Translations under genes and position numbers: made by a program
In this document: positions 8,511-34,555 of the stretch, in pieces
Layout: every line of letters starts with the position of its first letter
Position numbering within the stretch: position 1 is the stretch's first letter
The notes under the pieces: generated by a model
Database searches by the model: none
What the model was told of the DNA's origin: nothing
Seen by the model: the letters and a program-made list of their open reading frames with translations, nothing else
From: Promethearchaeota archaeon
Lineage (GTDB): Archaea > Asgardarchaeota > Lokiarchaeia > Sigyniarchaeales > SOKP01
DNA length: 34,691 bases
Direction: 5' to 3'
Assembly (NCBI GenBank): GCA_048938445.1
Contig: JBHLME010000040.1
Coordinates: forward strand, 1-34,691

Positions 8511-8722
8511 TTCGGAATTTTGTTCATAAAAATTAATCATTTTTAATAGATGAATGAAGTCATAATCGAATATATGATATTCCCTAATTTTTTTCGTCGT
8601 AAGAGGAGCTTCTTCAACCTTATCATATTATATCACTTTTATCTTTTATTGGATTAAGATTTCATTCAATACTCTTTCTTTAATATACGGATTATATTTC
8701 GAGATTTTACTTTTTTTATTTA

Positions 8723-9655
8723 TTAATAGTGCTCTTTTTCAGGATGTATTATTCTTATAAATTTAAAATTAAAGATATCTTCAATTTCGAGTTTTTTTTT
8801 AATATAATTTAACTCGTATAATGTTTGTACAAATTTCATTGTAGAGTTAATCATTGATTCTGAAAGAGCTATACAATATTTTGGAGATATTTCTAATACA
8901 GATTTAATATAATCTTGAGTTAAAACTTTAAAGGAAGATGAAATCAGTTTTGCTGCATTTAATGGGTTATTTTGAAGTAAAATGGATGCCGTTTTATGAT
9001 ATTTAAGAAATTTTAAAACAATTTCAGGAGACTCTTTTATTATATCTTCATGAAAAAAAATTCCATAACTTGGATTGTATGGCCACAATCTATCAGGTGG
9101 TATGATGATGCGTGTTTTTTGGATTGTTGAACTAAATATTGCTAATGATGGAGTTCCTACACCTCCATCTAATAATCCTTTCTTCATGTCTAATGCAATA
9201 AATTCAGCTTGTGGATAATTTTTTACTTCTACCTTATTAAGTAAATTATATTTTATTAAATAGTAATTTATTATTACATCATGAATAGATCCCTTACTTG
9301 GAACTCCAATTCTCTTACCTTTAAAATTTTTTAGAACATTTTTTAGATTTACATCATTATTATTGAGAGAATTATATGAATCCTTCGCTATCATTAAAGT
9401 TCCTTCAACATGTCCACCTGCTACACATTTAATGGGTATACCATTATCAATACCAATTATAGCAGGAGGTAATCCCATATATCCTATATCTAATTTACCA
9501 TCATTAAATGCTTTAATCATTGATGGTCCCGTTCCAAATAGAATCCATTTAACCAAATTATTAAATTCTGCTTGAAATTCTTTATTGCACATCAAAATAA
9601 AGTTAGTATGGTAAGCAGTTGATAGATGACCTATTCTTAGTTCTTGTTTTTTCAT
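8723..9655 (-). CDS. NMT1/SsuA-type periplasmic-binding-fold protein lacking a signal peptide
   Basis: LRIGHLST, F.TGP.M..AF..G.LDIGYMG.PP, KGKRIGVP..GSIHD motifs; no hydrophobic N-terminus; no permease or ATPase adjacent. Confidence 0.75.
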   Translation of the reverse strand: MKKQELRIGHLSTAYHTNFILMCNKEFQAEFNNLVKWILFGTGPSMIKAFNDGKLDIGYMGLPPAIIGIDNGIPIKCVAGGHVEGTLMIAKDSYNSLNNNDVNLKNVLKNFKGKRIGVPSKGSIHDVIINYYLIKYNLLNKVEVKNYPQAEFIALDMKKGLLDGGVGTPSLAIFSSTIQKTRIIIPPDRLWPYNPSYGIFFHEDIIKESPEIVLKFLKYHKTASILLQNNPLNAAKLISSSFKVLTQDYIKSVLEISPKYCIALSESMINSTMKFVQTLYELNYIKKKLEIEDIFNFKFIRIIHPEKEHY

Positions 9656-9827
9656 CAAAAACCATATTGAAAAAAATTATTAATTATATCTTTCTAAGGT
9701 TATGTACATATTTTTAATTAATATTTACACCTTTTTATTTTTTTTTGGACATAATTAAATATATATTTGTTCAGTAATTAATAAAGTACAAGGAATAATA
9801 TAAAAAAATCAATAAAGAGGAAGATTA

Positions 9828-17751: not shown

Positions 17752-18324
17752 GTGATAAAAATATCGGATGTTAAAGATAAAGAAGAAGAAACAAGACAAT
17801 TTAAAACTGATGATGATTTCGACTCACAATTTTTTAAAGATATTGAAAGAAAATCAAATATATGGTCATGCATCCAATGCGGAACTTGTACTGCTTCATG
17901 TGAAAGCGGTAGATGGACTGCACTTAAAACTCGTAATATTATTCGAAGAGTCGTGCTTGGAGATTTAGAAGTTTTAAAAGATCCTGATATATGGCTTTGC
18001 ACGACCTGTTATCAATGTTATGAGAGATGTCCCAGAGATGTTCGCCCGACAGATGTCATAATGGAATTAAGAAATTATGCTACGAAATTAGGAAATATCA
18101 GTCCTAATCATAGGGCAGTTGTAGGATATCTTAAAAATACGGGACATGCGGTCCCAATTAACGATAAAATTAGGCAACAAAGAGTCGAATTAGGTTTAGA
18201 AGAACTCCCACCAACATTATTTAAATATAAAGAGGCGGGAGATGATAAAGATTTAAAAAATATTGAAGAAAAAATGTTTGATTTACCCGAACCAAAAAAA
18301 GAAAAGAAGGAGGAGAAGAAATAA
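17752..18324 (+). CDS. hdrC: Heterodisulfide reductase subunit C
   Basis: CIQCGTCTASC and WLCTTCYQCYERCPR 2x[4Fe-4S]; GHAVP. The true start may be ATA 17761 because GTG 17752 lies inside the AGGTGA SD. Confidence 0.92.
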   Translation: MIKISDVKDKEEETRQFKTDDDFDSQFFKDIERKSNIWSCIQCGTCTASCESGRWTALKTRNIIRRVVLGDLEVLKDPDIWLCTTCYQCYERCPRDVRPTDVIMELRNYATKLGNISPNHRAVVGYLKNTGHAVPINDKIRQQRVELGLEELPPTLFKYKEAGDDKDLKNIEEKMFDLPEPKKEKKEEKK

Positions 18325-19242
18325 ATGGCAAAAGAGAATACATTTGCGTTTTTTTTAGGCTGTATTATGCCAAATCGTTATCCTCAAATTGAAAAGGCTA
18401 CAAAATTTGTAATGGAGAAATTAGGGTATGAACTTTTAGATATGGAACGTGCAGCATGCTGTCCCGCTCCAGGAGTATTTAGGTCATTTAATAAAGTGGA
18501 TTGGATGGTTCATGCTGCAAGAAATTTATGCATTGCTGAAAAAATGGATGCTGACATTTTAACTGTTTGTAATGGATGTTTTGGCACGCTCCAAGAAGTA
18601 AACAAGCGTCTTAAAGAAGATGAAACCTTGAGAATTAAAGTAAATGACAAGTTGAAACAAATAGGAGATTATGAATATAAAGGAACGATTGAAGTTCGTC
18701 ATATCGCAGAAGTGTTGGGGTATGATGTAGGTCCCTGGGGTATTGAAGATTTAATCGTCAGAAAAGTAGATTTAAAGGCTGCAGTTCATTATGGATGCCA
18801 TTTCTTGAAACCTACGAAGATAAGAGAAATTGCAAGTTCAGAAAATCCAACTCTTATTGAAGAATTCATAGAAGTAATGGGTGTAAAATCTGTTCCATTT
18901 AAAGAACAATTAACATGTTGCGGTGCGGGCGGTGGAGTAAAAGCCTATGATGGAAATTCAAGTATGACGATTTTCGGTGAAAAAATGAAAAATATAGACG
19001 AAGTGAAACCTGACATCATATTAGATATATGCCCTTTCTGCCATCTGCAGTTTGAAACCGGTCAAGATTACTTGAATAAGAATAAAAATTGTAATTATGA
19101 TTATCCTGTCATCCATCTCTCACAATTAACAGCCTATTGTTTAGGACTGGATCAAGAATTCATAGGTCTCAAGTATCAAATGATGGGAAAAGAATTCATA
19201 TTTGGTGGAGAGATGATTAACGAGAAGGAGGAGGCGATTTAA
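18325..19242 (+). CDS. hdrB: Heterodisulfide reductase subunit B
   Basis: FLGCIMP.RYP, CCPAPG, CNGC, HYGCH, CCGAGGG, CPFCHLQF (two CCG domains). Confidence 0.95.
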   Translation: MAKENTFAFFLGCIMPNRYPQIEKATKFVMEKLGYELLDMERAACCPAPGVFRSFNKVDWMVHAARNLCIAEKMDADILTVCNGCFGTLQEVNKRLKEDETLRIKVNDKLKQIGDYEYKGTIEVRHIAEVLGYDVGPWGIEDLIVRKVDLKAAVHYGCHFLKPTKIREIASSENPTLIEEFIEVMGVKSVPFKEQLTCCGAGGGVKAYDGNSSMTIFGEKMKNIDEVKPDIILDICPFCHLQFETGQDYLNKNKNCNYDYPVIHLSQLTAYCLGLDQEFIGLKYQMMGKEFIFGGEMINEKEEAI

Positions 19243-21276
19243 TTGACAGAAAAAGCACAAAAAGTAAAATCTAAAATAACAGAAGCTGATAAGAGTTCTA
19301 AGGAAGAAGAGGAAGAACCAAGAATTGGTGTTTATGTATGCCATTGTGGACATAACATAGCTGGTACGGTAGATGTTGCAAAAGTTGCTGAATATGCTTC
19401 AACTTTACCTAATGTTGTTGAAGCCAAACATTACATGTTCATGTGCTCAAAACCAGGAGTTCAACTCTTAAAAGATGCGATTAAAGAAAATGGAGTTAAC
19501 AGAACTGTCGTTGCTTCATGTTCAAAAAACCAACATGGAAGAACTTTTGCTAGGACAATTGAAGAAATGGGACTGAACAAGCACTTACACCAACAAGTAA
19601 ATGTAAGAGAATTTTGTAGTTGGGTTCATCAAAAAGATAAAAATAAAGCGACGGAAAAAGCAAAAAAGTTAGTAGAAGCTGGAGTGAACCGAGCACGAAA
19701 ATTAGAAGAAGTACAAACTAAACGAATTCCAACAACTAAAGCAGCACTAGTAATCGGAGGAGGAATAGCAGGACTTAGATCTGCTTATGATATGGCAGAA
19801 TTGGGAATTCCTGTTTATTTAGTGGAGAGAGAATCTACTATCGGGGGTCACATGACTCGATTAAACAAGACTTTTCCAACGAATGAATGTCCTCAATGTA
19901 GCATTTCTCCACTCACAAATGGTGTTGCGAACCATCCATTAATTACACTCTATACTAATGCTCAAATTAAAAATGTTGAAGGAACAATGGGTAATTATGA
20001 AATAGAAATTGAGATTAAACCTCGTTATGTGAAAGATAATTGTACATCATGTGGAGAATGTGCGGCAAACTGTCCCGTTGAGGTTCCATCTGAATGGGAC
20101 AAGGGGATGTCAACACGGGGTGCAATTTATAAAGCATATCCTCAAGCAATTCCCGCGACATATGTGAGAGATAAGAAAACATGCATTGAATGTAATACAT
20201 GTATTCGTGTATGTCCCGTTCAAGCAGTTGATTTTTCGATGAAACCTGAAACAAAAACTTTCAAGGTTGGTTCAATCGTCGTGGCTGCTGGTTATGAAGA
20301 ATATGACCCAAGTGAAATAGAGCCATACCATTATGGTCAAGAAGGTTATGAGGACGTGATCACGCAATTACAATTAGAACGCATACTCGGTCCAACCTCA
20401 TTGACTGGAAGTGAAGTATTGAGACCCTCTGATGGGAAAATTCCCAAATATATAGTAATGATACAATGTGTTGGAAGTAGAAACGAACAAGTTGGAAATA
20501 AATATTGTACTGGTGTCTGCTGTAAATTTGCAACGAAAAATGCAGGTATAGTTAAAGACATGTACCCTGATTCGGACGTGACCATTTGTTATATTGATAT
20601 GAGAACGCCTGGATTAAATTTTGAGGAGTATTATAAAGATACTCAAGAGAAAGGCGTGAGATTCATAAGAGGTCGACCTTCTGAGATTTTAAAAGATCCC
20701 ATTTCAGGGCAACTTTATGTCATTGTAGAAGATACATTAAGTCAAACTCCTTTAAGATTGAAAGCAGATCTAGTGGTTTTATCAGCAGCAATGGTACCAC
20801 CCCAAGGTATAGGTCCTTTAGGATCTAAATTGAAGATTTTGCGTTCAAAAGAAGGTTTTTTTAAGGAATTTCACATCAAGATGAATCCTACCGCAAGTAG
20901 TAAAGGTGGTATTTACTTGGCAGGAACTATCCAAGGTCCAAAAGATATATCAGAGACCGTGGCACACGCAGGTAATGCGGCTGCTCTCGCGGCTCAACCC
21001 TTAGTGAAAGGATACATTGAAAAAGAAATGCTCATTCCTTCAATAGATTATGATTTATGCATGGATTGCGGAATGTGTGTGACTGCTTGTAATCCTGCTG
21101 CAATTAGCATGAATGAAGAAGGACGCCCCGTAGTTAATGAAGTTGCGTGTCGTTCTTGTGGAATGTGTATGCCTGCGTGTCCTACAGGAGCTATTCAATT
21201 GTTAAATTTTAGTGATGATCAGTTATTAGATGAAATCATTCCAATTTCAGGTGGAGGTGTTGTTTGTAATGAGTAG
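19243..21276 (+). CDS. hdrA: Heterodisulfide reductase subunit A (bifurcating flavoprotein)
   Basis: RIGVYVCHCG.NIAG, GGGIAG, KTFPT.EC..C, inserted and C-terminal ferredoxins, QCVGSR...YC..VCC, QGPKDI. Confidence 0.95.
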   Translation: MTEKAQKVKSKITEADKSSKEEEEEPRIGVYVCHCGHNIAGTVDVAKVAEYASTLPNVVEAKHYMFMCSKPGVQLLKDAIKENGVNRTVVASCSKNQHGRTFARTIEEMGLNKHLHQQVNVREFCSWVHQKDKNKATEKAKKLVEAGVNRARKLEEVQTKRIPTTKAALVIGGGIAGLRSAYDMAELGIPVYLVERESTIGGHMTRLNKTFPTNECPQCSISPLTNGVANHPLITLYTNAQIKNVEGTMGNYEIEIEIKPRYVKDNCTSCGECAANCPVEVPSEWDKGMSTRGAIYKAYPQAIPATYVRDKKTCIECNTCIRVCPVQAVDFSMKPETKTFKVGSIVVAAGYEEYDPSEIEPYHYGQEGYEDVITQLQLERILGPTSLTGSEVLRPSDGKIPKYIVMIQCVGSRNEQVGNKYCTGVCCKFATKNAGIVKDMYPDSDVTICYIDMRTPGLNFEEYYKDTQEKGVRFIRGRPSEILKDPISGQLYVIVEDTLSQTPLRLKADLVVLSAAMVPPQGIGPLGSKLKILRSKEGFFKEFHIKMNPTASSKGGIYLAGTIQGPKDISETVAHAGNAAALAAQPLVKGYIEKEMLIPSIDYDLCMDCGMCVTACNPAAISMNEEGRPVVNEVACRSCGMCMPACPTGAIQLLNFSDDQLLDEIIPISGGGVVCNE

Positions 21277-21715
21277 CTGTGAAGAAAATGAATGTGAAGG
21301 ACAATATGAAAATATAGTTGTATTTATGTGTAATGAGTGCGGTCAAGGTTCTGCTAATACCGCAGGTGTTGGAAGGATGGCTTATGATCCAGCTGTGAGA
21401 ATTGTTAGAGTTCAGTGCACAGGTCAAGTTGGTCCAACTCAGATAATGGATGCGTTAAATAACGGTGCTGATGCAGTTGCTTGTGTTGGATGCTGTATTG
21501 GAGCTTGTCACTTCTTCAACGGTAATCTCTTATCAATGCGTAGAATCAAGTTAATGAAGAAGCTTTTTAAAGAACTTGGATATAGTGATCAATTCGTAAA
21601 TCAATATACTTCTAGAGCTGCAGAAGGAGAGACAGCAGTTGGAGATTTTGATGATATTGTAGAAAGATTATGTACGGCTATAAAAGATGGAGGTACGTTT
21701 GAAAATGTATGTTAA
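21269..21715 (+). CDS. mvhD: MvhD/FlpD [2Fe-2S] subunit
   Basis: F.CNEC, RVQCTG, GADAV...GC..G.CHF..GN; start ATG 21269 after GGAGGTG SD. Confidence 0.88.
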   Translation: MSSCEENECEGQYENIVVFMCNECGQGSANTAGVGRMAYDPAVRIVRVQCTGQVGPTQIMDALNNGADAVACVGCCIGACHFFNGNLLSMRRIKLMKKLFKELGYSDQFVNQYTSRAAEGETAVGDFDDIVERLCTAIKDGGTFENVC

Positions 21716-22946
21716 AATATTTCAATTTAATGGATGTAATAAATGTTTCAATGAAACTTTATTGTTAAAAAAGCAATCAGGTATGGATGTCGAATTAATC
21801 TCAAATCCAAGTACATGGAAGGAAGATAAGATTGACATTGCAGTCATAACTGGGTATTTATTACCCAAAGATAAGGATGTAATTGCGAAAATACAATCAA
21901 GTGCAGAAAAAATAATAGCATATGGTGATTGTACTACTACGGGTGGAATTTTTGGACTCGCCAACCAAAAAGGAGCCGAAGTCACACCTCTTTTAAAATA
22001 TATTCCAAGTGCTCTTAACATAAATGGTTGTTTGGCTGAAATTGAAGAATTAACAACAACGATTAAAGGAGAAGATAAACCTAAGTTGAAGATTTTATGT
22101 AAGGTTTGTAAAAGAAGATCAACTTGTGAATATTTAGATGAGGTCCTCAGGCAAATTGATCCATCTGAAGATGAAGAATCATGTTTTAATGATTTAGGTT
22201 TTCAATGTAATGGTTATATTGCCCTGGAATGTAAAGAAAGATGCGTTGACTATGGTACACAATGTCGTGGGTGTAAACCATTGGGAACACGATCAGGAAT
22301 TCGAATGTTGGGTATGTTTGGAACCTTGATGGGTAATGTTGAAGTTGCTACAGAAGCCTCTAAATATGGTGCCACGGATAAATTGGCAGATCAAGATGAT
22401 GATATGACCGCCAGTCTCCCAGATATTGTAGGAAATTTCTTTAGATTTACCCTTCCTACTTCAGGATTACCAAAAGGAAGAATTCCTTCAAAAGGAAGTA
22501 TTTTAGAGGATGTGTTTTCTGATAGACTTATTGAAGAATTCCCCCTCATAACAGGGTTACTTGGAGGAGATAAATCAATCTCAATAACACTAAGTATTAT
22601 CGAAGCCTATGAAAAGGGGACTGGTATCGAAGTTGGTGAACAAACAAAGAAATTCAGGGAAGAATTGCGAAATCTTGAAAAACAATTACAAGAAGCGATT
22701 AAATCTTCTGATGCTGATAAATATAAAGAAATCACTGATAAAATTAGAAATATTGCGGGAAACATGAATTTATCAAATGTCTTTTATGGTGGGTTTAAAA
22801 CACCAATCGAAGGAGCTGATAATTTTGAAGATTATAAAGCAAAACCTTTCGAAATTGTAGAAGGGACTTATAAAAATGGAATTGTCGAGTATAACATCGA
22901 TTCGACAGGCATAATTAAAGAAATAAAAATTAAGGAGGAAAAATAA
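21705..22946 (+). CDS. Divergent MvhG-like Fe-S protein (hydrogenase small-subunit fold) with C-terminal extension
   Basis: GCNKC, AYGDC...GGI.GL, INGC, LC..CKR, CF...G..C.G.....C...C......CRGC, RFTL as in MvhG/VhuG; about 150-aa helical tail. Confidence 0.72.
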   Translation: MYVKIFQFNGCNKCFNETLLLKKQSGMDVELISNPSTWKEDKIDIAVITGYLLPKDKDVIAKIQSSAEKIIAYGDCTTTGGIFGLANQKGAEVTPLLKYIPSALNINGCLAEIEELTTTIKGEDKPKLKILCKVCKRRSTCEYLDEVLRQIDPSEDEESCFNDLGFQCNGYIALECKERCVDYGTQCRGCKPLGTRSGIRMLGMFGTLMGNVEVATEASKYGATDKLADQDDDMTASLPDIVGNFFRFTLPTSGLPKGRIPSKGSILEDVFSDRLIEEFPLITGLLGGDKSISITLSIIEAYEKGTGIEVGEQTKKFREELRNLEKQLQEAIKSSDADKYKEITDKIRNIAGNMNLSNVFYGGFKTPIEGADNFEDYKAKPFEIVEGTYKNGIVEYNIDSTGIIKEIKIKEEK

Positions 22947-25399
22947 TGAGTTTTCAATTATTAAAAGAAGAAATAATTGATGCTGGACTTTGCCAAGGAT
23001 GCGGGAAGTGTGCAGGAACGTGTAAACATATAGAAATGGAAAATCTACGGCCTACACTTAAAGATTATTGCATTCTTGAACGTGAAGGAATAGATTGTGG
23101 TAGGTGTTATGAAGGATGCCCACAGGTCATTCAGAAAAAGTTTAAAGAACGAGATCCTTTAGAAATATATTCTCTTCGAAGTAAAGATCCAGAAATCCTA
23201 AAAAAAGCCGCAAATGGGGGTTTTATTACCACAATCGCTAAGGAACTGTTAGAAAGCAAGAAATTGGCAGATATAGTAATGGTTCAAAATGATGATGATA
23301 AGCCCATAGCAGATAAAGTATCCGATCCAAATGATGTGATTCAAAAAGCGGGTATCGTGTATGGAAGGTCTGGTGTTCTGGAAAAGTTAATAGAGTTAAC
23401 AGGAGAGACTTATGAACCTCTAGGTATAGTCGGTGTTCCATGTGAAATGCGAGGGGCAGCAGAACTAGAAGATAAGATGAAAATTGATATCTTAAAACTT
23501 GGATTATTTTGTAACTCAAGTATAAGAACAGATTTTACTGATAAGGGGCTTATATGCTCTCCATGCTGTGGTGGTTGCCCATCAGGAGTTAATGCTCAAG
23601 GTTACATCGCTCATATAAGAAATGCAGAATATCAGGAGGCAGTGGATTTAATTCGGGAAAATAATCCACTGCCTTCTATCTGCGGTAGAATTTGTACCCA
23701 TGAATGTGAACATAATTGCACGTTTATTGGCACTGATCATCCAGTTGCTATTCGAGAATTAAAAAAATTCGTTACAGAATGGGAGATGGAAAAAGGTAAA
23801 CAGAAAAAAGCTAAAAAAAAGCCAAAAGGAAAAAAAATAGCAATAATAGGTTCCGGTCCTGCCGGATTGACTGCTGCGTACTATTTAGCAAATAAAGGAT
23901 ATACTCCAACAATATTTGAAAAGTCTGATCAAACTGGAGGAATGTTAAGATTCGGTGTTCCACAATTTAGATTACCTAATTATGTCTTAGATTATGACAT
24001 TCAATCCATAAAAAACGCAGGAGTAGATATTATATTAAATAGGCCTTTTGGGCCCGAATTAACAATTGAAGATCTTAAAAAAGATGGGTTTGAAGCTGTT
24101 TTTATTGCTACTGGTCAGTACAAACCAAGAACTTTAAGTCTTGAAGGTGAAGATCTTCCTAATGTCTATGTTGCCATTAATTTTTTAATTGATAGAAAAT
24201 ATAGATATTGCGAGGATCCAGAAGAATTCAAAGGAAAGACAGTTGGAATTATTGGTGGAGGTCCTGTTGCCGTTGATGTTGCTCAAACGGCCTTGAGGTT
24301 AGGGGCAAAGAAAATACATCTTGTCGATATAGCAACCGAAAAAGATTTAGAGTTAGTCTTGAAAGATATCCCTGAAAATGAATTTGAGTTTATGGAATAC
24401 CATTATACGACTTCTACTTCTAAAATTACTAAAGGGAAAAAAGATCAAATCATATTAAATTGCTATAAAATTGAATGGAGCGATCCCGATGAATCAGGTC
24501 GACGCTCTTTGAACAAGATTGAAAATTCTGATTATGAGATACCTGTTGATGCAATAGTAATAGCTGTTGGACAAGCAGTTGATTTTGATTTAATTGATGC
24601 TGCCACGGATAAGAAAATTAAAAAAGAAAGGAATAAAATAATCGTAGATGAAATTACTTTTGAAACAAACATTCCTGGTGTATTTGCAGGAGGGGATATA
24701 ATAGCAAATTCTAAAGCTGTTGCCATCGCAGCAATTGCTCACGGAAAAGAAGCGGCAATCTCGATCGATCGATATCTGAAGGGAGAAGCTGTTAAAAAAG
24801 GACGTTTTAAGCAAAACAGGATGTTCTTTACTGGACCTAAAAAACCTCCAAAAGATTATTCGCTTAAAGCTTGCTTAGAGGAAGAAGAAAATATCTGGAG
24901 TTTTGAGAACGAAATTGATGCAATGTTTAATGAGGACATGGCATTAAAGGAAGCAAGGCGTTGTTTAAGCTGTAATCATTTTTGTGCTCATTGCCAAGAC
25001 TTTCCAGCTATATATTCAGATCTTACCGCAGGGGAGGTCGGCTCAGAATCAGGATTTACGACAGTTGTAGTATGGACGGAGCAGGGCAAGGAGATTGTCG
25101 AAAATGCAATTAAAAAGGGACTTTTTGAGGAAGGGAAAGTAAACATGGATGAATTGAAAACTGCTATCAAGATAAAATCAAAACGTGACCTTTTAACTTT
25201 TGAAAAAACACCAAGACAACGAGTTTTAGACTATATCACCATCCAAGGACCAAGTACAATTCAAAACATCTCTACAAAATTAAATTTAGAACCAAAACGA
25301 GTAAGACATGAAGCATTAAGATTAGTTCAATTAAATAAATTTGAAATGAAAATCAACCCAGAAATGGGAGAACCAATATTTTCGCTTATGTGCGAATAA
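22946..25399 (+). CDS. FrhB/FdhB-like protein with nested GltD/SudA-type FAD/NAD(P) oxidoreductase and C-terminal winged helix
   Basis: N-terminal ferredoxin + GGF.T + VGVPC + LGLFC (FrhB); CP...NPLP..CGR.C...CE..C, GSGPAG, GVFAGGD, EARRCLSC (GltD-like); C..C.DF....SD...G.VGS..G.T.V (FrhB resumes); wHTH-like tail. Confidence 0.8.
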   Translation: MSFQLLKEEIIDAGLCQGCGKCAGTCKHIEMENLRPTLKDYCILEREGIDCGRCYEGCPQVIQKKFKERDPLEIYSLRSKDPEILKKAANGGFITTIAKELLESKKLADIVMVQNDDDKPIADKVSDPNDVIQKAGIVYGRSGVLEKLIELTGETYEPLGIVGVPCEMRGAAELEDKMKIDILKLGLFCNSSIRTDFTDKGLICSPCCGGCPSGVNAQGYIAHIRNAEYQEAVDLIRENNPLPSICGRICTHECEHNCTFIGTDHPVAIRELKKFVTEWEMEKGKQKKAKKKPKGKKIAIIGSGPAGLTAAYYLANKGYTPTIFEKSDQTGGMLRFGVPQFRLPNYVLDYDIQSIKNAGVDIILNRPFGPELTIEDLKKDGFEAVFIATGQYKPRTLSLEGEDLPNVYVAINFLIDRKYRYCEDPEEFKGKTVGIIGGGPVAVDVAQTALRLGAKKIHLVDIATEKDLELVLKDIPENEFEFMEYHYTTSTSKITKGKKDQIILNCYKIEWSDPDESGRRSLNKIENSDYEIPVDAIVIAVGQAVDFDLIDAATDKKIKKERNKIIVDEITFETNIPGVFAGGDIIANSKAVAIAAIAHGKEAAISIDRYLKGEAVKKGRFKQNRMFFTGPKKPPKDYSLKACLEEEENIWSFENEIDAMFNEDMALKEARRCLSCNHFCAHCQDFPAIYSDLTAGEVGSESGFTTVVVWTEQGKEIVENAIKKGLFEEGKVNMDELKTAIKIKSKRDLLTFEKTPRQRVLDYITIQGPSTIQNISTKLNLEPKRVRHEALRLVQLNKFEMKINPEMGEPIFSLMCE

Positions 25400-25498: not shown

Positions 25499-26239
25499 TC
25501 ATAGTTCTTTTAATAATTTTATTTTAATAAAAAACTTTTGAGCTGGTTCGGGCATTACCCATCCCATATAAATAGTTATAAAATTAAGTATTAAGAAAAT
25601 CCGTACAATAATTACCCCTATAGTTATCAAAGGAACGACGGCATCAAGTATAGCTAATATTGCATATGTTGTATAGCTTAAAAACAATATCTGGCCTTTT
25701 AATTTAACTAATGGATTATCAGATTTCATAGATCTCACTGAAACCCAAATTCCTGTTAATGTAATAGTCATGAGGATTAATATCAAAAATGTCATTACGA
25801 ATCCAAAATATTGTACATTCAAATGATATCGATCCAATTCACCTATTGAATGAGGGGTAAAGAAAAGCATTAATAAAAATCCTACCTGAAAAACACCTAA
25901 AATGACTGCGTAAACAACCAATAGAATCTTGTTTTTTCCTTCAAATAACAATATATTTAATGCAATTATCCAGGCATAGGTTAATATGGGGGCAAAAGCA
26001 TTTCCAAGGAAAAAATAGATTTGATCTGGAAGGGGTTGATTGAGTATGACATTGCTAAGAAAAGACACTGAAGAAGGCCACCAAGGACAACCAGCTCCTA
26101 ATAATGTAAGTCCTACAAAGATAAATGTTTTATCCTTATATTTAAAATATCTTAGTATCACTAATATTCCTATAATCATATTTGCAATAACATAAAGTAA
26201 GCTAAACAAACCTTCAATAAATTCATTTGGACCTAACAT
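25499..26239 (-). CDS. Hypothetical 7-TM membrane protein (paralog A)
   Basis: Seven hydrophobic segments; CPWWPSSVSFL motif shared with 27583-28335. Confidence 0.75.
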   Translation of the reverse strand: MLGPNEFIEGLFSLLYVIANMIIGILVILRYFKYKDKTFIFVGLTLLGAGCPWWPSSVSFLSNVILNQPLPDQIYFFLGNAFAPILTYAWIIALNILLFEGKNKILLVVYAVILGVFQVGFLLMLFFTPHSIGELDRYHLNVQYFGFVMTFLILILMTITLTGIWVSVRSMKSDNPLVKLKGQILFLSYTTYAILAILDAVVPLITIGVIIVRIFLILNFITIYMGWVMPEPAQKFFIKIKLLKEL

Positions 26240-26351
26240 TGACCATAATAAATAATTTGAGATAAGAGTTTTCTTAACTTTTAATATACTAATAAAAATA
26301 TTTAAATACTTATATAATTCGATTTTATCAATTATATATTAGATAGTATGG

Positions 26352-27212
26352 TTATAATAACCCAAAAAAATCAATCACTTTAGTAGGTCTGTTTAAATTA
26401 GTTGAAAAATAATTTTCAATAATATCCAATAGGAATTCTAAATAGGGAACTTGTATAGTAATCTTAAAAATATTATTTAAATAGAGCATTGCATCCTTTA
26501 TTCTAAATTGTTGACCTTTCTTCTGAGTTTGATGAAACTTGAGGATTTGATGTATAAATTTTTCAATTTTGTAGATTTCATTTTTAAGTAAAATCAAACC
26601 TGATACTTCATCATATTCCTCATAAAATTGATGTACAATAACTTGTTCGATTTTTAATTTTGAATTTTCAAGTATTCTTTTATCATCATTTATGACTTTT
26701 CTTCCATCAATTATTACATGATTCTTATAATTCTTTTTGCTTTTTTTATATTCTTTACGTGATAAAAAAATGATATCTAAATTGAATGTGTCTCCAAAAA
26801 TATACTCTAAAAATTTAAGATAATGAATATTTAAAAAATCCTGATCAGAAATATATAATAGTTTTCCACCCATTAGCACGACTCTAATAATATTTGCTAA
26901 TACTGAAGGCAAGAGATTTATTTTAATAAGATTAATATCAAAATTTTTTAGTCTATCATAATCATCTAATTCTGGAACAGTTATTTGTGGTAGCATGATT
27001 TTAAAATCACAGACATAACAATCCCTGATATCTAAATTATTATCTATATAAGTAATAAAAGAATGTTCACATATGGTATTTTCTGTGATATTCACTGCTG
27101 TAATCCCTCTTTCATTTTCAGTGACTTTATTTTTTTCTATATTAATTTGTCCTGAAGCTATGCATACTGGACATCGAACCTTAATTGCGACTGACTGATC
27201 CTTAGAAGACAC
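26352..27212 (-). CDS. Hypothetical protein with N-terminal CPxC...CxHSF putative Zn-binding domain (paralog A)
   Basis: RCPVC, CEHSFI.YID.NL..RD; same length (286 aa) as 28579-29439. Confidence 0.75.
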   Translation of the reverse strand: MSSKDQSVAIKVRCPVCIASGQINIEKNKVTENERGITAVNITENTICEHSFITYIDNNLDIRDCYVCDFKIMLPQITVPELDDYDRLKNFDINLIKINLLPSVLANIIRVVLMGGKLLYISDQDFLNIHYLKFLEYIFGDTFNLDIIFLSRKEYKKSKKNYKNHVIIDGRKVINDDKRILENSKLKIEQVIVHQFYEEYDEVSGLILLKNEIYKIEKFIHQILKFHQTQKKGQQFRIKDAMLYLNNIFKITIQVPYLEFLLDIIENYFSTNLNRPTKVIDFFGLL

Positions 27213-27582
27213 CTATCTATACCTGGTAATAATAAAGACTTATTTTATTAATATCATTTCAGGTATTTAAAAAATAGTGTTTTACCTATTTTTATTTTCG
27301 AAAAAATATAAGCAACGCATCAACAAACCTTAAATCTACCAAAAAAATAATTGATGGTATTAAAGAATTAGATTTTATGAAAAAAAATTGAAATTAAATT
27401 ATTAGATGCATTTTATTTTATTGATTCTACAATGAGTTATTTTATTTTTAAAACAAAAGAATTAATTTTTAAATTAAAATTGTAAATTTTTTCCTAAATT
27501 AATATTATATTATCTTTTTATGACCATAGCTAGGCTGTTAATATTCTATTATAAAAAAAATTAGGATTATATTCTAATTTCG

Positions 27583-28335
27583 CTATTTTTTTAAAATTTT
27601 GACCTTTCTAAAGAATTTTTGCATGAATTCAGGCATGACCCATCCAAAATAAAAGTCAATTGCAGAAATTATTAATAATGTTCTAACTATTATCACTCCA
27701 ATGACTTCTAATGGAACCCTGGTATCTATAGTAGCTGCAACACTCCATATAATAAAACCAATTAACATTAATTTTCCTCTTAACTGAATCACGGGTTTAT
27801 TCGCCTTCATTAGTTTCCTTGACATTAATAGTCCTGTTGTAAAGATTGTTATCACAATAATTATTAATAATACAAAAATGAATCCTTCGTATTCTGCGTT
27901 CAGATTTTTCTCATCCAATGAACCTATGAGGAGAAGAATTAAGTTAGGGGGTGCAACAAATAAAATCAGTAAAAACACGATTTCCATGACACTTAATAGT
28001 ATTGCATAACTTATTACAAATATTTTATTTTTCCCATCAAATAATAAAATATTCATTCCGATAATCCATGAAAACAAGAATAAGGGGATAAATGCATTTC
28101 CAATGAAAAAAAATACCTGATCAGGAATTTTGTATTCAAATAAAGCATGGCTGAGAAATGAAACAGACGATGGCCACCAAGGGCAACTAATTCCAGCGAC
28201 TGAGAGACCTATGAATATAAATGATTTTTCCTTGTATTTAAAATACCTTGAGATCAATAAAATACCTACTGATGTAGTACTAAAGACATAAAGCAAGCTA
28301 AATAATCCTTCAATGAATTCTTCTGGTCCTAGCAT
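27583..28335 (-). CDS. Hypothetical 7-TM membrane protein (paralog B)
   Basis: MLGP.EFIEGLFSLLYV start and GWVMPE end shared with paralog A. Confidence 0.75.
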   Translation of the reverse strand: MLGPEEFIEGLFSLLYVFSTTSVGILLISRYFKYKEKSFIFIGLSVAGISCPWWPSSVSFLSHALFEYKIPDQVFFFIGNAFIPLFLFSWIIGMNILLFDGKNKIFVISYAILLSVMEIVFLLILFVAPPNLILLLIGSLDEKNLNAEYEGFIFVLLIIIVITIFTTGLLMSRKLMKANKPVIQLRGKLMLIGFIIWSVAATIDTRVPLEVIGVIIVRTLLIISAIDFYFGWVMPEFMQKFFRKVKILKK

Positions 28336-28578
28336 TCATAGCACCTGTTATTTATAAAAAATATTTTCATAGAATATTAAGTACTACTAATCGTATTAAA
28401 ATGCTTGTATGTGATTTATAGATTATTAAAATATCTATATTTATCACTTAATACTTCATTTAATGCACCAAATGGTAAAAATATTACACAAAAAACTTAA
28501 AAATAATTTTTAGAGTGTTATTGAAATCTAAGAAATTCAATCTGGTAAAAAGAAATGAGATATTAAATTAAATGATAT

Positions 28579-29439
28579 TTAAATCAATCCAAAAAAGTCA
28601 GCCATCTTCGAGGGTCGATTTAAGTTTATTGCATAATAATTTTCTATAATTTCTAATAGGAAATTTAGATATGGAAGGGGAATGTTTGTATGGTAAATAT
28701 TATTTAAATGTTCTATCACTTGTTTTGTATCAAATTCTTCATCTTTATTTTGTTTTTTATGAAACCTTAGAATCTCATGGATAATCCTTTCAATTTTATA
28801 GATCTCATTTTTAAACATTATAAGACTCGAAATTTCATCATATTCCTTGTAAAACTGTTGAACAAAAGCTAGTTCGATTTTTAATTTTGATTGTTCAATG
28901 ATTTTCTCATCATCTTTTATGAGTTTGCCTTGATCCCATACTATATGATTTTTGTAATCCTTTCGATTTTTTTTAAATTCTTGGCGTGTTAAAAAAGTAA
29001 TGTCAAAATTGAAAACATCTCCAAATACATATTCTAAAAATCTGAGATAATGCTCATTTAAGAATTCATGCTCAGAAATTAGTGCGATTTTTTTCGCTAT
29101 TAGCACGGCTCTTATTACACTAGCTAGTAGTGTGGGCATTAGATTAATTTTAATGATGCTTAAATCAAAATTTTGTGGTGTTTCATAAAGTTTTTCTTCA
29201 GAAATTTCGATTTGTGGAATGTCAATTTTAAAATCACAAACAAACGAGTCTCTAACATCTAGGTTTTTATCAATATATGCTATAAAAGAGTGTTCGCATA
29301 TTACTTTTTCCGCTACATTAATTGCAGCTATGCCTCGAGTGCTCGTTTTTACAAGATTTTTTTCAACTTCTAGTTGACCTTTATGGTTGCATACTGGACA
29401 TCGTATTAAAATTTTAACTGTAAATTCATCAGAACTCAT
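28579..29439 (-). CDS. Hypothetical protein with N-terminal CPxC...CxHSF putative Zn-binding domain (paralog B)
   Basis: RCPVC, CEHSFIAYIDKNLDVRD, LNRP.K..DFFGL C-terminus shared with paralog A. Confidence 0.75.
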   Translation of the reverse strand: MSSDEFTVKILIRCPVCNHKGQLEVEKNLVKTSTRGIAAINVAEKVICEHSFIAYIDKNLDVRDSFVCDFKIDIPQIEISEEKLYETPQNFDLSIIKINLMPTLLASVIRAVLIAKKIALISEHEFLNEHYLRFLEYVFGDVFNFDITFLTRQEFKKNRKDYKNHIVWDQGKLIKDDEKIIEQSKLKIELAFVQQFYKEYDEISSLIMFKNEIYKIERIIHEILRFHKKQNKDEEFDTKQVIEHLNNIYHTNIPLPYLNFLLEIIENYYAINLNRPSKMADFFGLI

Positions 29440-30558: not shown

Positions 30559-32073
30559 ATGAAAATTTTGAGTATCGTAGAAAAGTTCAATACTTTAAAA
30601 GAGGGAGGTGTATATAAGTACCTCATTAATGGAGAATGGAAAAAATCAGGAACAGGAATAACCATTCCTATAAAAAATCCCTTTAATAATGAAGTTGTCG
30701 GAAATATTCAAGCTTGTTCTCAAGAAGAAGTTGATGAGGCAGTTAAAATTGCACGTGATAATATAGAATGTTGGATTGAAACACCATTGAACCAAAGAGC
30801 CGAAATTTTACGTAAATCAGCTAAAATAATCAGAGAATGGGCAGAGCCATTAGGAAAAATTCTAATGAACGAAATAGGAAAGCCAATAAAAAGTGCAATT
30901 TCTGAAATCGCAAGAACCGCTGATATATTTGATGGAACCGCAGATTTTGCATCGACCATAGGAGGCGAAACAATAATGGGAGATGCTTTTGAGGGATTTA
31001 CTCGTGAAAAAATTTCAATGACTTATAGAGTCCCATTAGGAGTAGTGTTATGCATTGGTCCTTTTAATTATCCTTTTAATTTAACGGGATCTAAAATAGC
31101 TCCAGCATTAGTTGCTGGAAATACGGTTGTAATGAAACCTCCTACTCAAGGAGCAATTACACCTCTACACTTTGGACTTATCTTAGAGGAAGCAGGACTC
31201 CCTCCAGGTGTCTTTAATATAATTACTGGACGTGGTTCTGAAATAGGAGATCATTTAACCAGTCATCCAGGAATTGACATGATTGCTTTTACTGGATCCT
31301 CTGAAACGGGTAAAAATCTTGCTAAAGTTGCAGGAATGAAACCACTTTTATTAGAAATGGGTGGAAAAGATGCTGCTATTGTACTTGATGATGCAGATAT
31401 TGAACTCACGGTCAAAGCAATAATCTCAGGAGCTTTTTCTTTTAGCGGTCAAAGGTGTACTGCTGTTAAAAGGGTTCTTCCCATGCCTAAAATTGCAGAT
31501 GCTCTAATCCAGAGAGTTGTTGAAGAAACAAATAAGCTTACAATTGGAGATCCCGCTGAAAACAAGACTATCGGTCCACTCATAAATTCAAAACAATGTG
31601 ATTATGTTCAAGGATTAATTGATGATGCGCTTCAAAAAGGAGCTACATTAATGTGTGGCAATAAAAGAGAAGGAAATATCATGTGGCCTACGGTTTTGGA
31701 TCATGTTACGACTGAAATGAGAGTTGCTTGGGAAGAGCCATTTGGACCTATTTTACCATTTATACGAATTCAAAATGCCGAGGAGGCTATTAAAATCTCA
31801 AATAAATCAGAATATGGATTACAGGGCATGATATTTACTGAAAATATTGATTTAGCGTTTAATATCGCTCAAGAATTAGATGTCGGGACAGTTCAAATTA
31901 ATGGAAAAAGTTCAAGAGGGCCTGATCACTTTCCATTTTTAGGAACAAAGTCATCAGGGCTTGGAACCCAAGGAATGAAATATTCGATTGAAGCAATGAG
32001 TCGTCCTAAAGCAGTTGTCATGAATTTAACAGAAAAAGGGAAATTGGTTCGTGAATGTGGGGTGCATAAATAA
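30559..32073 (+). CDS. gapN: NADP-dependent non-phosphorylating glyceraldehyde-3-phosphate dehydrogenase (aldehyde dehydrogenase family)
   Basis: PLGVVL.I.PFNYP.NL, KPPTQG, EMGGKD, SGQRCTAVKR, WEEPFGP, RGPDHFPFLG motifs characteristic of GAPN. Confidence 0.85.
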   Translation: MKILSIVEKFNTLKEGGVYKYLINGEWKKSGTGITIPIKNPFNNEVVGNIQACSQEEVDEAVKIARDNIECWIETPLNQRAEILRKSAKIIREWAEPLGKILMNEIGKPIKSAISEIARTADIFDGTADFASTIGGETIMGDAFEGFTREKISMTYRVPLGVVLCIGPFNYPFNLTGSKIAPALVAGNTVVMKPPTQGAITPLHFGLILEEAGLPPGVFNIITGRGSEIGDHLTSHPGIDMIAFTGSSETGKNLAKVAGMKPLLLEMGGKDAAIVLDDADIELTVKAIISGAFSFSGQRCTAVKRVLPMPKIADALIQRVVEETNKLTIGDPAENKTIGPLINSKQCDYVQGLIDDALQKGATLMCGNKREGNIMWPTVLDHVTTEMRVAWEEPFGPILPFIRIQNAEEAIKISNKSEYGLQGMIFTENIDLAFNIAQELDVGTVQINGKSSRGPDHFPFLGTKSSGLGTQGMKYSIEAMSRPKAVVMNLTEKGKLVRECGVHK

Positions 32074-32913
32074 ATGACTGGGTTAAAAAATAAAGTAATA
32101 TTCATCACTGGTGCAAGTAGGGGTATAGGAAAAGCAATCGCTATTAAGTGTGCTCAAGATGGTGCTAAAATCGCAGTTGTCGCTAAGACAAAAGAATCCC
32201 ATCCAAAGCTCCCAGGAACCGTGTATACTGCTGTTGATGAAATTGAAAATGCAGGAGGGCGAGCTATACCTTGTATCGCGGATATTCGATTTGAAGATCA
32301 AGTTCAAGCTGCTTTAGATGCAACTATTGATGAATTTGGAGGGATTGATATCCTCATTAATGATGCGAGTGCAATAAGTATCACGCCTACTCTTCAAACC
32401 TCAATGAAACGATTTGATTTAATGTTTTCTGTTAACGTTAGAGGGACTTTTTTATGTTCAAGATTATGTATCCCCTATTTAAAAAAATCAGAAAATCCAC
32501 ACATTTTAAACTTATCTCCTCCCCTTAATTTAGATCCTAAATGGTTCTCAAATCATTTAGCATACACGATGTCTAAATATGGGATGAGCATGTGCGTGCT
32601 TGGAATGGCAGAAGAATTTAAAAAAGATGGTATTGGGGTAAATGCACTATGGCCCCGGACGACAATTGCCACCGCTGCAGTGAAGAATCTATTAGGAGGA
32701 GAGAAAGCAATGAAACAATCAAGAACACCAGAAATCGTTGCAGATGCGGCATATTTAATTGTAAACAAAGTGAGTAGGGAATGCACAGGAAATTTTTTCA
32801 TTGATGATGAAGTATTAATTGAAGCAGGTATAACGGATTTAAGTAAATATTCATTAGTACCAGGAGCACAATTATTATCAGATTTTTTCTTATATGGAGG
32901 AGGAGAGACTTAA
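32074..32913 (+). CDS. Short-chain dehydrogenase, HSDL2-like
   Basis: TGASRGIG, HPKLPGT, PHILNLSPP, YTMSK catalytic motif, NALWPRT.IATAA. Confidence 0.88.
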   Translation: MTGLKNKVIFITGASRGIGKAIAIKCAQDGAKIAVVAKTKESHPKLPGTVYTAVDEIENAGGRAIPCIADIRFEDQVQAALDATIDEFGGIDILINDASAISITPTLQTSMKRFDLMFSVNVRGTFLCSRLCIPYLKKSENPHILNLSPPLNLDPKWFSNHLAYTMSKYGMSMCVLGMAEEFKKDGIGVNALWPRTTIATAAVKNLLGGEKAMKQSRTPEIVADAAYLIVNKVSRECTGNFFIDDEVLIEAGITDLSKYSLVPGAQLLSDFFLYGGGET

Positions 32914-32914
32914 A

Positions 32915-33970
32915 ATGAAAAAATCATGGATTTTATATGGAGCTAATGGTTATACTGGAATTTTATTAGCTAAAGAAGCAAAAGAAAACGGATTAAATCC
33001 GATAATTGCTGGGCGTTCAAAAGAAAAAATACATCCATTAGCAGAAAAGCTTGATTTAGAATATCTAATATTTGATTTAAATGATGAAGACAAATTAATT
33101 GACATTTTTCAGAATCAAGATTTAATACTGAACGCCGCAGGTCCATTTAAATATACAAGCAAATCAATCGTGAATGCATGCTTGAAATCTAAAGCACATT
33201 ATTTGGACATTACAGGCGAAGTTCCCGTTTTTGAAGAAAATTTTAAACTAAATCAACAAGCTATTGATTCCGAAATTGCTATAATTTCTGGTGTAGGATT
33301 TGATGTCGTTCCTACTGATTGTATGGCAAGTTATATCCACACTAAAATAGATAATCCAATAAAATTAGATATCGGAGTCGCAGGAGTAGATAATCTAAGT
33401 AGGGGAACACTAAAAACTATGATAGAATACTTTTCTTCGGGAAGTTTAATTAGGAGGGACGGAAATCTCATGTTAAAAAAGAAAGATGAGTATCTAGATA
33501 AAATTCGATTTTACGATAAAGACAGGAAAGTCTTAGCTGTAAGCTGGGGTGACTTGGCAACAGCATTTAAGACCACAAGCATACCCAATATTACCACTTA
33601 CATGCCTCCTTCTATGAGCTTATTAAAATTACTGAAATCCTCAGGAACAAGTCTAGATGGCAGTTCTCAAGGTTTTGATGAAAATAAACTCTTGAAATAC
33701 ATTGAAGATAACGTGTATGGACCAGATGAAAATGTTCGATCAGAAGGGACCTCACATATATGGGTATCTGTTTCTAATCAATCAGGAGATAAAGCAGAAG
33801 CTTGGCTTGAAACAATTGAACCATATCGATTTACTGTCCTGAGCGGAATTAAAGCAGTTGAAAAAGTCATTAATAGTAATCTTAAAGGTTCATTGACGCC
33901 CTCCCTAGCATTTGGAGCTGATTTTGTACTTGAATTTCCCGATACAACTCGTCATAATTCTTTAGATTAA
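32915..33970 (+). CDS. Saccharopine dehydrogenase-like NAD(P)-binding oxidoreductase
   Basis: YGANGYTG, NAAGPF, HYLDITGE, GFDVVPTD, TPS.AFG; start ATG 32915. Confidence 0.85.
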   Translation: MKKSWILYGANGYTGILLAKEAKENGLNPIIAGRSKEKIHPLAEKLDLEYLIFDLNDEDKLIDIFQNQDLILNAAGPFKYTSKSIVNACLKSKAHYLDITGEVPVFEENFKLNQQAIDSEIAIISGVGFDVVPTDCMASYIHTKIDNPIKLDIGVAGVDNLSRGTLKTMIEYFSSGSLIRRDGNLMLKKKDEYLDKIRFYDKDRKVLAVSWGDLATAFKTTSIPNITTYMPPSMSLLKLLKSSGTSLDGSSQGFDENKLLKYIEDNVYGPDENVRSEGTSHIWVSVSNQSGDKAEAWLETIEPYRFTVLSGIKAVEKVINSNLKGSLTPSLAFGADFVLEFPDTTRHNSLD

Positions 33971-34165: not shown

Positions 34166-34555
34166 ATGAAAACTGATACCGAAGAAAAGGAGTGGCATGA
34201 AAAACTTACAAAGGAACAATATGAAGTGCTTAGAAAAAAAGGCACGGAAAGACCATTTACCGGTAAATATTGGAACAACCATGAGGATGGCATTTATCGA
34301 TGTGCGGGATGTGGTGCAGAATTATTTTCTTCAGATACCAAGTTTGATTCTGGAACTGGTTGGCCAAGTTTTTCCGACGTTATGGATAATGAAAATATCG
34401 AATTGAAAGAAGATAGAAGTCATGGGATGATCCGGACAGAAGTTCTTTGTAAGAACTGTGGAGGTCATCTTGGACATTTATTCATGGATGGTCCATCACC
34501 GACAAATTGTCGCTATTGTATAAATTCCATATCTCTAAATTTTGATAAAAAATAA
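34166..34555 (+). CDS. msrB: Peptide-methionine (R)-S-oxide reductase
   Basis: GTERPFTG, CAGC, GWPSF, RTEV.C..C..HLGH.F.DGP, RYCINS. Confidence 0.95.
   Translation: MKTDTEEKEWHEKLTKEQYEVLRKKGTERPFTGKYWNNHEDGIYRCAGCGAELFSSDTKFDSGTGWPSFSDVMDNENIELKEDRSHGMIRTEVLCKNCGGHLGHLFMDGPSPTNCRYCINSISLNFDKK

Follow-up and report, generated by a model that had tools for sequence, protein, structure and literature searches.

Introduction

Heterodisulfide reductase (Hdr) complexes hold a central place in the energy conservation of anaerobic archaea, but what they do in the Asgard archaea, which are the nearest known relatives of eukaryotes, is unexplained. FlxABCD-HdrABC of sulfate reducers is an NADH-linked Hdr system, which contains the MvhD-like FlxD and was proposed to reduce a protein disulfide (DsrC). 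The name Flx also appears in PMC7015854. In ElpABC-HdrABC of Methanothermobacter marburgensis (PDB 8rvu), a donor arm for F420H2 is built from the FrhB-family protein ElpB, a homologue of MvhD and a dead remnant of FdhA (PMC12350162). Moreover, the GltD domain inserted in type III HdrA was proposed to use NADH (PMC12054007; also PMC9012536), and in NfnABC electrons from NADPH enter a cluster chain through the NfnL-like domain without bifurcation (PMC12018979). Here, positions 1 to 34,691 of contig JBHLME010000040.1 of a Promethearchaeota archaeon (hereafter the window, i.e. the whole stretch analysed) were examined for a gene at 22946..25399 (+), which encodes P0001, an iron-sulfur flavoprotein with a GltD/NfnL-like module nested in an FrhB-like domain.

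By analogy with these systems we consider it moderately probable that P0001 is the hydride-input, nicotinamide-dependent donor subunit of an Asgard HdrABC-MvhD electron-bifurcating complex. The observations behind this reading are the domain anatomy, a circular permutation, residue conservation, synteny and a motif change at the nucleotide site; cofactor content, electron path, physical complex, nucleotide preference and acceptor are inferred from them. Relatives of P0001 that contain the module are referred to as long forms and those that lack it as short forms.

Domain organization of the nested flavoprotein

The region 22946..25399 (+) is one open frame for a protein of 817 aa, as checked by open reading frame (ORF) search and translation. 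The following features were assigned:

22946..25399 (+): P0001, FrhB-like::GltD/NfnL-like nested iron-sulfur flavoprotein, last gene of its operon (ORF, translation, Pfam)
22946..23125 (+): N-terminal ferredoxin-like domain (aligns with the ferredoxin domains at the N-termini of Fsr and 8rja_E)
23168..23383 (+): FrhB_FdhB_N with GGF.T, aa 75-146 (Pfam, 46.2 bits, cut-off 22)
23420..23545 (+): first piece of FrhB_FdhB_C, aa 159-200 (Pfam, profile positions 4-49)
23555..23797 (+): Fer4_20, profile positions 27-112, aa 204-284 (Pfam, 78.1 bits, cut-off 25.8)
23834..24745 (+): Pyr_redox_2, aa 297-600 (Pfam, 96 bits, cut-off 26.1)
24908..24988 (+): permuted first element of Fer4_20, aa 655-681 (Pfam, profile positions 6-33)
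24929..25141 (+): second piece of FrhB_FdhB_C, aa 662-732 (Pfam, profile positions 79-147)
25211..25387 (+): winged-helix-like C-terminal tail, aa 756-814 (AlphaFold2 (AF2) model; fold match of the short-form counterpart)

In the original prediction, a complete GltD-type module inserted within an FrhB domain had been proposed from motifs, and its landmarks were exact: C189 (nt 23512) is the last residue of LGLFC, the SPC..CP motif opens at aa 204 (nt 23555), and C676 (nt 24973) closes EARRCLSC, with C680..C683-DF..SD..G.VGS next. The four Pfam families expected there (FrhB_FdhB_N, a split FrhB_FdhB_C, Fer4_20 and Pyr_redox_2) all scored above their cut-offs in the hidden Markov model (HMM) scan, and with FrhB_FdhB_C split around Fer4_20 and Pyr_redox_2 the nesting of a complete GltD/NfnL-type module within one polypeptide was confirmed. 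FrhB_FdhB_C reached 62.8 bits in total (cut-off 23.3) in two non-contiguous stretches. When the ends of the protein were scanned apart, aa 159-200 matched profile positions 4-49 and aa 668-732 matched positions 85-147; the C-terminal segment does have the FrhB_C similarity on which the proposal hinged. About 30-35 profile positions (about 50-84) are missing, and ~470 aa are present in their stead. The second piece reads C680..C683-QDF...SDLTAGEVGS..GFTTV, and the inserted module of Fer4_20 and Pyr_redox_2 spans aa 204-681, with the Fer4_20 cysteines at positions 204, 207, 208, 211, 246, 250, 254 and 258.

Two parts of P0001 had gone unmentioned in the prediction, namely an eight-cysteine ferredoxin domain at the N-terminus and a C-terminal tail of ~60 aa. 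The former is of the Fsr/FpoF kind, has its cysteines at residues 16, 19, 22, 26, 42, 51, 54 and 58 and is expected to bind two [4Fe-4S] clusters; all eight cysteines are invariant in the family alignment A1, and the domain has a predicted local distance difference test (pLDDT) score below 50 in the cluster-free model. The latter is common to long and short forms and was modelled by AF2 as three helices and a two-strand wing (pLDDT 78-91). In the short-form model it matches winged helix-turn-helix (HTH) proteins (4lb5_B, TMt 0.84 over 58 columns) and also MarR-like chains, while Pfam HTH matches are weak (E 0.014). Some relatives of P0001 were named 'predicted transcriptional regulator' by JGI, and the tail may serve in docking, DNA binding or regulation.

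The inserted module and its junction with the FrhB scaffold

Both FrhB halves of P0001 align colinearly to single solved chains of the FrhB family, i.e. to residues 6-191 and 272-340 of 8rja_E and to residues 7-169 and 247-325 of Fsr (7np8_A). In FrhB of M. marburgensis, the ligands of the [4Fe-4S] cluster are Cys104, 134, 192 and 195 (PMC3591093), and to these C166 (VGVPC), C189 (LGLFC), C680 and C683 of P0001 align. Together with C673 and C676 of the module, these four cysteines are invariant in all nine long- and short-form rows of alignment A1, as are G91, G92, F93 and T96 of the GGF.T motif.

The module itself is, as judged from its profile matches, a circular permutant of an NfnL/GltD-type module. 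Fer4_20 matches aa 204-284 from profile position 27 on, and its positions 6-33 follow at aa 655-681, after the flavin domain (E 3.5e-4 for an isolated 56-aa piece, E 0.031 in the scan of the split ends). This tail reads F.NEID..F.ED.A..EARRC673LSC676 and recurs in 12 of 14 stand-alone relatives, several of which end directly after RCLRC, and in NfnA of T. sibiricus (9n5u_A, residues 571-595). The canonical order, with positions 5-110 unbroken, was found in the relative P0210; the match begins at positions 27-30 in 13 other close relatives. A single-sequence search of the 56-aa tail against the PDB gave NfnA alone, with E 5.3, and it took the Pfam profile to reveal the permutation. The closest solved relatives of the module are NfnL and the NADPH-entry domains of NfnABC/StnABC (9n5u_A, 9bov_A, 8oh5_C), and the models of the glutamate synthase small subunit remained below their cut-offs (TIGR01317, 216 vs 447.7; TIGR01318, 232.4 vs 483; TIGR01316, 307.1 vs 471.8).

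In dihydropyrimidine dehydrogenase, an RC..C pair and a C...CP pair presumably serve the same cluster region, and on this assumption the two ends of the module would meet at one [4Fe-4S] cluster. Three residues separate C676 of the module from the FrhB ligand C680, with C683 next. Since the invariant cysteines of module and FrhB domain adjoin in this way, two neighbouring clusters are predicted at the junction.

Nucleotide-binding site

The fingerprint of the FAD Rossmann fold (GSGPAG) is located at aa 302 and that of the NAD(P)H Rossmann fold (GGGPVA) at aa 437. A YRR sequence after the second Rossmann strand is an NADPH-type motif, and an acidic residue there together with the loss of both arginines is the usual sign of NADH over NADPH. 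YRR..(E/D)(M/I)P(A/V) is present at the nucleotide site of 13 of the 14 stand-alone relatives. P0001 has HLVDIA with D461 at the YRR position, and among 24 long forms the site reads (V/I)DI in 22, VEI in one and YRR in one (P0122). Because YRR is replaced by (V/I)DI or VEI in 23 of 24 long forms, the module of these proteins probably prefers NADH.

Absence of the canonical F420 loop

In FrhB of M. marburgensis, the loop 163-IGKGK lies beside the F420 ring, between Cys134 and Cys192 (PMC3591093), and the solved relatives have FDIKKGK (Fsr), FDIGEGK (8riu_B) or FDVKKEG (8rja_E) at this place. No counterpart of these three sequences was found in P0001 by alignment or in the Pfam scan of the split ends. 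Because just 14 residues lie between C189 and the first cysteine of the module, and FrhB similarity restarts at about C680, the canonical F420 loop is absent, with the inserted module taking the place of that segment.

It had been suggested that the refolding of the two FrhB halves be judged by structure prediction. Every match listed by Foldseek for the full-length model of P0001 falls on the inserted module, and a short form was therefore modelled as well. The model of a short form matched FrhB-family chains with E 2.7e-15 to 4.3e-10, among them ElpB (8rvu_E, E 4.3e-10), and the best TMt was 0.62 to 4ci0_C; the parts that the short-form and long-form models share consist of the same secondary-structure elements. 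At the stretch that corresponds to the F420 loop, the linker of the short-form model is of low confidence and has no predicted hairpin.

Relatives and short forms

A search for relatives in a collection clustered at 90% identity gave 7748 hits among 8000 scored candidates. The best 120 of these 7748 are 817-825 aa long, contain each of the four Pfam families and share 71-100% identity with P0001; their product names are generic, and the named sources are metagenome-assembled genomes (MAGs) of Promethearchaeota, Lokiarchaeota, and Hod-, Thor-, Heimdall-, Hermod- or Odinarchaeota. An exhaustive HMMER pass was made over 1.84 billion representatives at 50% identity. Among the 150 hits listed were two full-length nested proteins verified by Pfam (P0121, 58% identity, and P0122, 46%), four fragments that fit the long form, a single short form and 143 proteins that match the module alone. 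Of these 143, 14 were checked with Pfam and FrhB domains were found in none. The long-form family is common in Asgard MAGs and appears confined to them.

Among the module-only relatives checked are HdrA-NfnB fusions, one MvhD-split and one CCG fusion, and proteins of the Fdh/StnC-like kind. The permuted NfnL-like module was seen in other nested or fused settings as well, such as in P0132 (1172 aa), P0127 (918 aa) and P0222 (1159 aa). In an HdrA-like protein it comes behind a FlpD/MvhD match that is truncated (profile positions 1-83 of 123); in the others it is fused to CCG (HdrB-like) domains, or precedes a ferredoxin domain and MvhD.

Eighteen uninterrupted short forms of 366-399 aa were found, which are 61-70% identical to aa 1-195 of P0001 and have the same ferredoxin domain and tail; where names are given, they are Asgard. 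A tree of 41 rows was calculated from the FrhB parts only (module columns excluded, midpoint root). The short forms make up one clade (support 98/97) inside a starred set with 11 long forms, and the other long forms, P0121 and P0122 fall outside this set. One change of state explains the distribution of long and short forms, and with its midpoint root the tree does not prove the direction of this change.

The direction from long to short is indicated by the short-form linker, because it retains sequence from the end of Fer4_20. It has a stretch homologous to aa 257-286 of the long form with PVAIR.LK.F, a motif common to the stand-alone relatives. For 17 of the 18 short forms (P0299 was left out), scores were compared with those of 1700 shuffles. 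With an HMM of long-form aa 252-288, 15 of 17 scored above the best shuffle, with up to 51 bits; with aa 650-672, four of 17 scored above every shuffle, and with the control segment aa 300-340 none did. Thus it is quite likely, as read from the sequences, that the short forms are deletion derivatives of the long form in which the four junction cysteines were kept. Three results speak against a deletion: HMMs built from the 14 stand-alone relatives score the short forms within the range of the 1700 shuffles, Pfam Fer4_20 was detected in none of eight short forms at E <= 1, and FrhB_C covers the short forms as one stretch.

These data bear on another suggestion of the original prediction, namely that P0001 has two hydride ports or is a transhydrogenase-like F420:NAD enzyme. 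In such a two-port enzyme, F420 would be the hydride partner of the FrhB-like FAD and NAD(P)H that of the module, either to feed Hdr or to act as an F420H2:NAD(P)+ transhydrogenase. The motifs on the FAD side are indeed retained, with GGF.T where the buried helix starts and Y139 as the tyrosine in the position of the K-Y loop, and complete sets of F420 biosynthesis genes were reported in Lokiarchaeota (PMC8498797). In addition, the module-less short forms are a well-supported clade; because they persist, probably beside MvhG-like genes in similar operons, their scaffold would need a donor of its own. However, the segment that bears the F420 loop (IGKGK in FrhB; FDIKKGK, FDIGEGK or FDVKKEG elsewhere) is missing from the long form, and the corresponding short-form stretch is a low-confidence linker. 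On balance, the proposal is weakened by the lost loop, and two ports are rather unlikely.

Operon and gene neighbourhood

P0001 is encoded beside MvhG-like, MvhD and HdrABC genes (Pfam, NCBIfam), as had been predicted. The gene order is DsrE, DsrF, DsrH, DsrE2-like, HdrC, HdrB, HdrA, MvhD, MvhG-like and P0001:

16127..17721 (+): four DsrE/DsrF/DsrH/DsrE2-like (TusBCD-like) sulfur-carrier genes, directly upstream of HdrC (Pfam, NCBIfam)
17752..18324 (+): HdrC (TIGR03290, 179.9 bits, cut-off 160)
18325..19242 (+): HdrB with two CCG domains (TIGR03288, 373 bits, cut-off 345; Pfam CCG)
19243..21276 (+): HdrA, 677 aa (NCBIfam HdrA2 and HdrA models cover aa 27-665)
21230..21715 (+): MvhD (FlpD), [2Fe-2S] connector (Pfam FlpD, 111 bits; NCBIfam VhuD and HdrA2 C-terminal matches)
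21687..22946 (+): MvhG-like small-subunit protein, 419 aa (Pfam Oxidored_q6; alignments to MvhG chains)

The ATG of P0001 overlaps the TAA stop codon of the MvhG-like gene (TAATG), aaggagg is located 10 nt upstream, and a T-rich tract follows the stop codon of P0001. HdrA has no GltD domain by Pfam and NCBIfam and is thus not a type III HdrA. The listed ORFs of HdrA and MvhD overlap by 46 nt, and the true start of MvhD is probably further 3'. Asgard HdrA and MvhD are often selenoproteins (PMC11227280); both frames are open here without TGA and look like cysteine forms.

The MvhG chains 9sw2_E and 5odc_E align to aa 99-263 of the MvhG-like protein, and all of its 13 cysteines are invariant in the family alignment A3. 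It has a conserved C-terminal extension of 156 aa (aa 264-419) without family assignment. A NiFeSe_Hases domain or [NiFe] large subunit was not found by Pfam among the window ORFs scanned. As a lead, the extension is a candidate remnant of a large subunit, as ElpA is of FdhA: in an Atlas feature search, clusters of the NiFeSe_Hases type appeared at just 0.84, a profile search of the PDB gave no large subunit among 44 hits, and there was no significant Pfam match.

Three further loci (L001, L002 and L003) were obtained by a scan of genome contigs. The order HdrC-HdrB-HdrA-MvhD-MvhG-like-P0001 is kept in L001 and L002, the two of the three with enough upstream DNA. All ten genes are present in L002, in which the HdrC ORF is short and had no Pfam hit at the threshold used; L001 runs from the contig edge at DsrE2 through P0001, and L003 begins inside the MvhG-like gene. 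The genes downstream of P0001 differ among the three. Furthermore, at least 13 pairs of long-form and MvhG-like proteins share the size of their longest contig. In strain MK-D1, DSAG12_01145-01150 have matching order and names and expression values of 265-318 (PMC7015854, Supplementary Table 4); DSAG12_01150 is likened here to P0001 by names and gene order alone. It is listed as uncharacterised and was named sulfide dehydrogenase subunit alpha by Prokka, and the real MvhA of MK-D1 is located at another locus, with separate Flox clusters also present (PMC7015854, Imachi et al.). As an operon of the same order is expressed in this cultured strain, experiments would be feasible if the protein is an orthologue. 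The original prediction had allowed for the architecture being an already described, widespread family: it is widespread in Asgard MAGs and the MK-D1 operon is tabulated, but the protein there is uncharacterised.

The Prokka name, as well as the best NCBIfam hits of P0001, which are generic NAD(P)-binding or GltA-like models, would suit a SudA/NfnL-type enzyme that acts on its own as an NAD(P)H:ferredoxin (or polysulfide) oxidoreductase and lies next to Hdr genes incidentally. We regard this as very improbable: the NCBIfam scores are all below cut-off (e.g. PRK12771, 394.9 vs 516), the start codon overlaps the preceding stop codon, the order is conserved in L001 and L002 and listed for MK-D1, and the long-form and MvhG-like proteins recur as pairs. 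An artefact, whether from chimeric assembly or from read-through between an FrhB gene and a GltD gene that are in fact separate, was rejected and P0001 taken as an intact protein, because the frame is single and open, the best 120 of the 7748 relatives have the same length range and domain set in many independent assemblies, and the FrhB_C halves flank the module in register.

Proposed role and electron path

In the proposed donor subunit, the scaffold of the FrhB/FdhB/ElpB family would comprise a ferredoxin domain with two [4Fe-4S] clusters, a FAD domain and a [4Fe-4S] cluster on C166/C189/C680/C683. The stretch of the F420 loop (~30 residues) would have been swapped for the permuted NfnL/GltD module with two [4Fe-4S] clusters, FAD and an NAD(P)H Rossmann fold, the first and last segments of which would both give cysteines to one cluster, three residues from C680. 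Hydride from NAD(P)H, probably NADH, would be passed to the module FAD, and electrons from there via the two module clusters, the FrhB cluster, the clusters of the ferredoxin domain and three clusters of the MvhG-like protein to the [2Fe-2S] cluster of MvhD and the FAD of HdrA. At this FAD they would be divided, some going to ferredoxin and some to a disulfide that is reduced at HdrBC and may be carried by the adjacent DsrE-type proteins; the bifurcating reaction may also run in reverse. The FrhB FAD may relay electrons internally or serve as a second port. Together with the MvhG-like protein, P0001 would form a nickel-free donor arm, which is proposed because of the analogy with Elp-Hdr, type III HdrA and NfnABC. 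A three-chain complex prediction of the MvhG-like protein with the two FrhB halves gave 0.22 against a mark of 0.32, was made without controls and counts neither way.

The conserved DsrE-type genes and a sulfur-metabolism neighbourhood suggest that the Hdr substrate is here a protein-bound sulfur species. This neighbourhood was observed at 385-9658 (-) of the window and comprises MetW, an alpha/beta hydrolase, a PALP enzyme, an Rrf2 regulator and a hexapeptide transferase, as well as DUF169, a ThiI-like protein with NFACT-R_2, ThiF and NMT1.

Several points weigh against the proposed role. To our knowledge, Asgard archaea are mostly without methyl-CoM reductase, and the substrate of HdrB is then not evident. 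The packing of the two FrhB halves is not directly visible in the Foldseek matches of the full-length model. Four short forms share the longest-contig size with an MvhG-like protein (85254, 17466, 12442 and 3450), which suggests that short forms sit in the same operon type as long forms. Because of this pairing, the scaffold can probably work without the module, implying another electron source. The divergent family member P0122 keeps the NADPH-type YRR, and the fingerprint GGGPVA of P0001 ends in Ala, which points to NADP, not NAD, by the GXGXXG/A rule (PMC12054007).

A donor arm fed by NADH would tie Hdr-type bifurcation to fermentative metabolism and offer a testable route of NADH reoxidation in syntrophy. 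In a more far-reaching and doubtful scenario, an Asgard-specific nickel-free Hdr arm arose when a permuted NfnL grafted into the F420 site of an FrhB protein switched the donor from F420H2 to NADH, and the short forms reflect a later loss of the graft that left a fossil cluster. If this were true, the P0001-type Hdr and a separate MvhADG-HdrBC hydrogenase would cycle a common disulfide/dithiol and ferredoxin with net transfer of NADH electrons to H2 at low hydrogen pressure, and a missing route of NADH reoxidation in syntrophic, amino-acid-fermenting Asgard archaea would be filled.

Other genes in the window

The window has a G+C content of ~30%. Downstream of P0001, at 25499-29439 (-), a tandemly duplicated two-gene module with 25-26% G+C was observed. 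It encodes a membrane protein of ~250 aa (52% identity between the copies) and a 286-aa protein (57%) with an N-terminal CPVC...CEHSF; none of the four proteins had a Pfam or NCBIfam match. The genes at 30559-33970 (+) encode an aldehyde dehydrogenase (closest to lactaldehyde dehydrogenase, with a score below cut-off), an SDR protein (PRK08278, above cut-off) and an NAD(P) protein that resembles saccharopine dehydrogenase. Next comes MsrB at 34166-34555; none of these ordinary genes has a bearing on P0001.

Comparison with known systems

Like the donor arms Mvh, Fdh-MvhD and Elp, P0001 is encoded with MvhD and HdrABC (window, L001 and L002). Elp-Hdr shares with the proposed arm an FrhB/FdhB-family FAD/[4Fe-4S] subunit, an MvhD-type connector, a catalytically dead remnant and freedom from nickel. 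However, ElpB oxidises F420H2 and has no nicotinamide module, the remnant is a truncated FdhA in Elp-Hdr and an MvhG-like small subunit without MvhA here, and the host is a methanogen instead of an Asgard archaeon. The best solved matches of the FrhB halves (e.g. Fsr and 8rja_E) also have an N-terminal ferredoxin followed by an FrhB-type domain, but their extra domains are appended end to end rather than nested, and the F420 loop is present.

With respect to the module, type III HdrA/HdrA-NfnB of ANME-1 and Bathyarchaeota likewise has a GltD/NfnB-like module of ~500 aa inside an iron-sulfur domain as a proposed entry of NAD(P)H, and the HdrA-NfnB-type proteins P0130 and P0135 are among the nearest relatives of the P0001 module. 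The host domain differs, being the inserted ferredoxin domain of HdrA in type III and the FrhB-like subunit here, where HdrA is plain. The best match in sequence and fold is the NfnL-like domain of NfnA/StnC (9n5u, 9bov, 8oh5), which has the same tail F.EV...EA.RC..C after the flavin domain. These proteins differ by NuoG/Fdh-like domains, which were not detected by Pfam and NCBIfam in P0001 and the window ORFs scanned, and by NuoEF-like partners, NfnBC. FlxA of FlxABCD-HdrABC is an NfnA/SudB-type flavoprotein and not an FrhB::NfnL protein. Taken across its various settings, the permuted NfnL-like module suggests a recurrent plug-in cassette for Hdr-type proteins.

As the original prediction held, the architecture is not that of a characterised enzyme: no account of an FrhB domain that harbours a nested GltD/NfnL module was found in the literature searched, including the excerpts of PMC9012536, PMC11237513, PMC12054007, PMC10667645, PMC8498797 and PMC7015854. 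P0001 represents a clear natural case of domain grafting, in which a circularly permuted module, both ends of which would meet at one cluster, is plugged into the substrate loop of another flavoenzyme, and its natural deletion derivatives, the short forms, offer material for comparison. Its parts and their logic, i.e. an FrhB-family donor arm and the insertion of a GltD-type module, are already known from the systems above; new are the domain that hosts the insertion, the junction based on permutation, the replacement of the F420 loop, the NADH-type motif and the deletion series.

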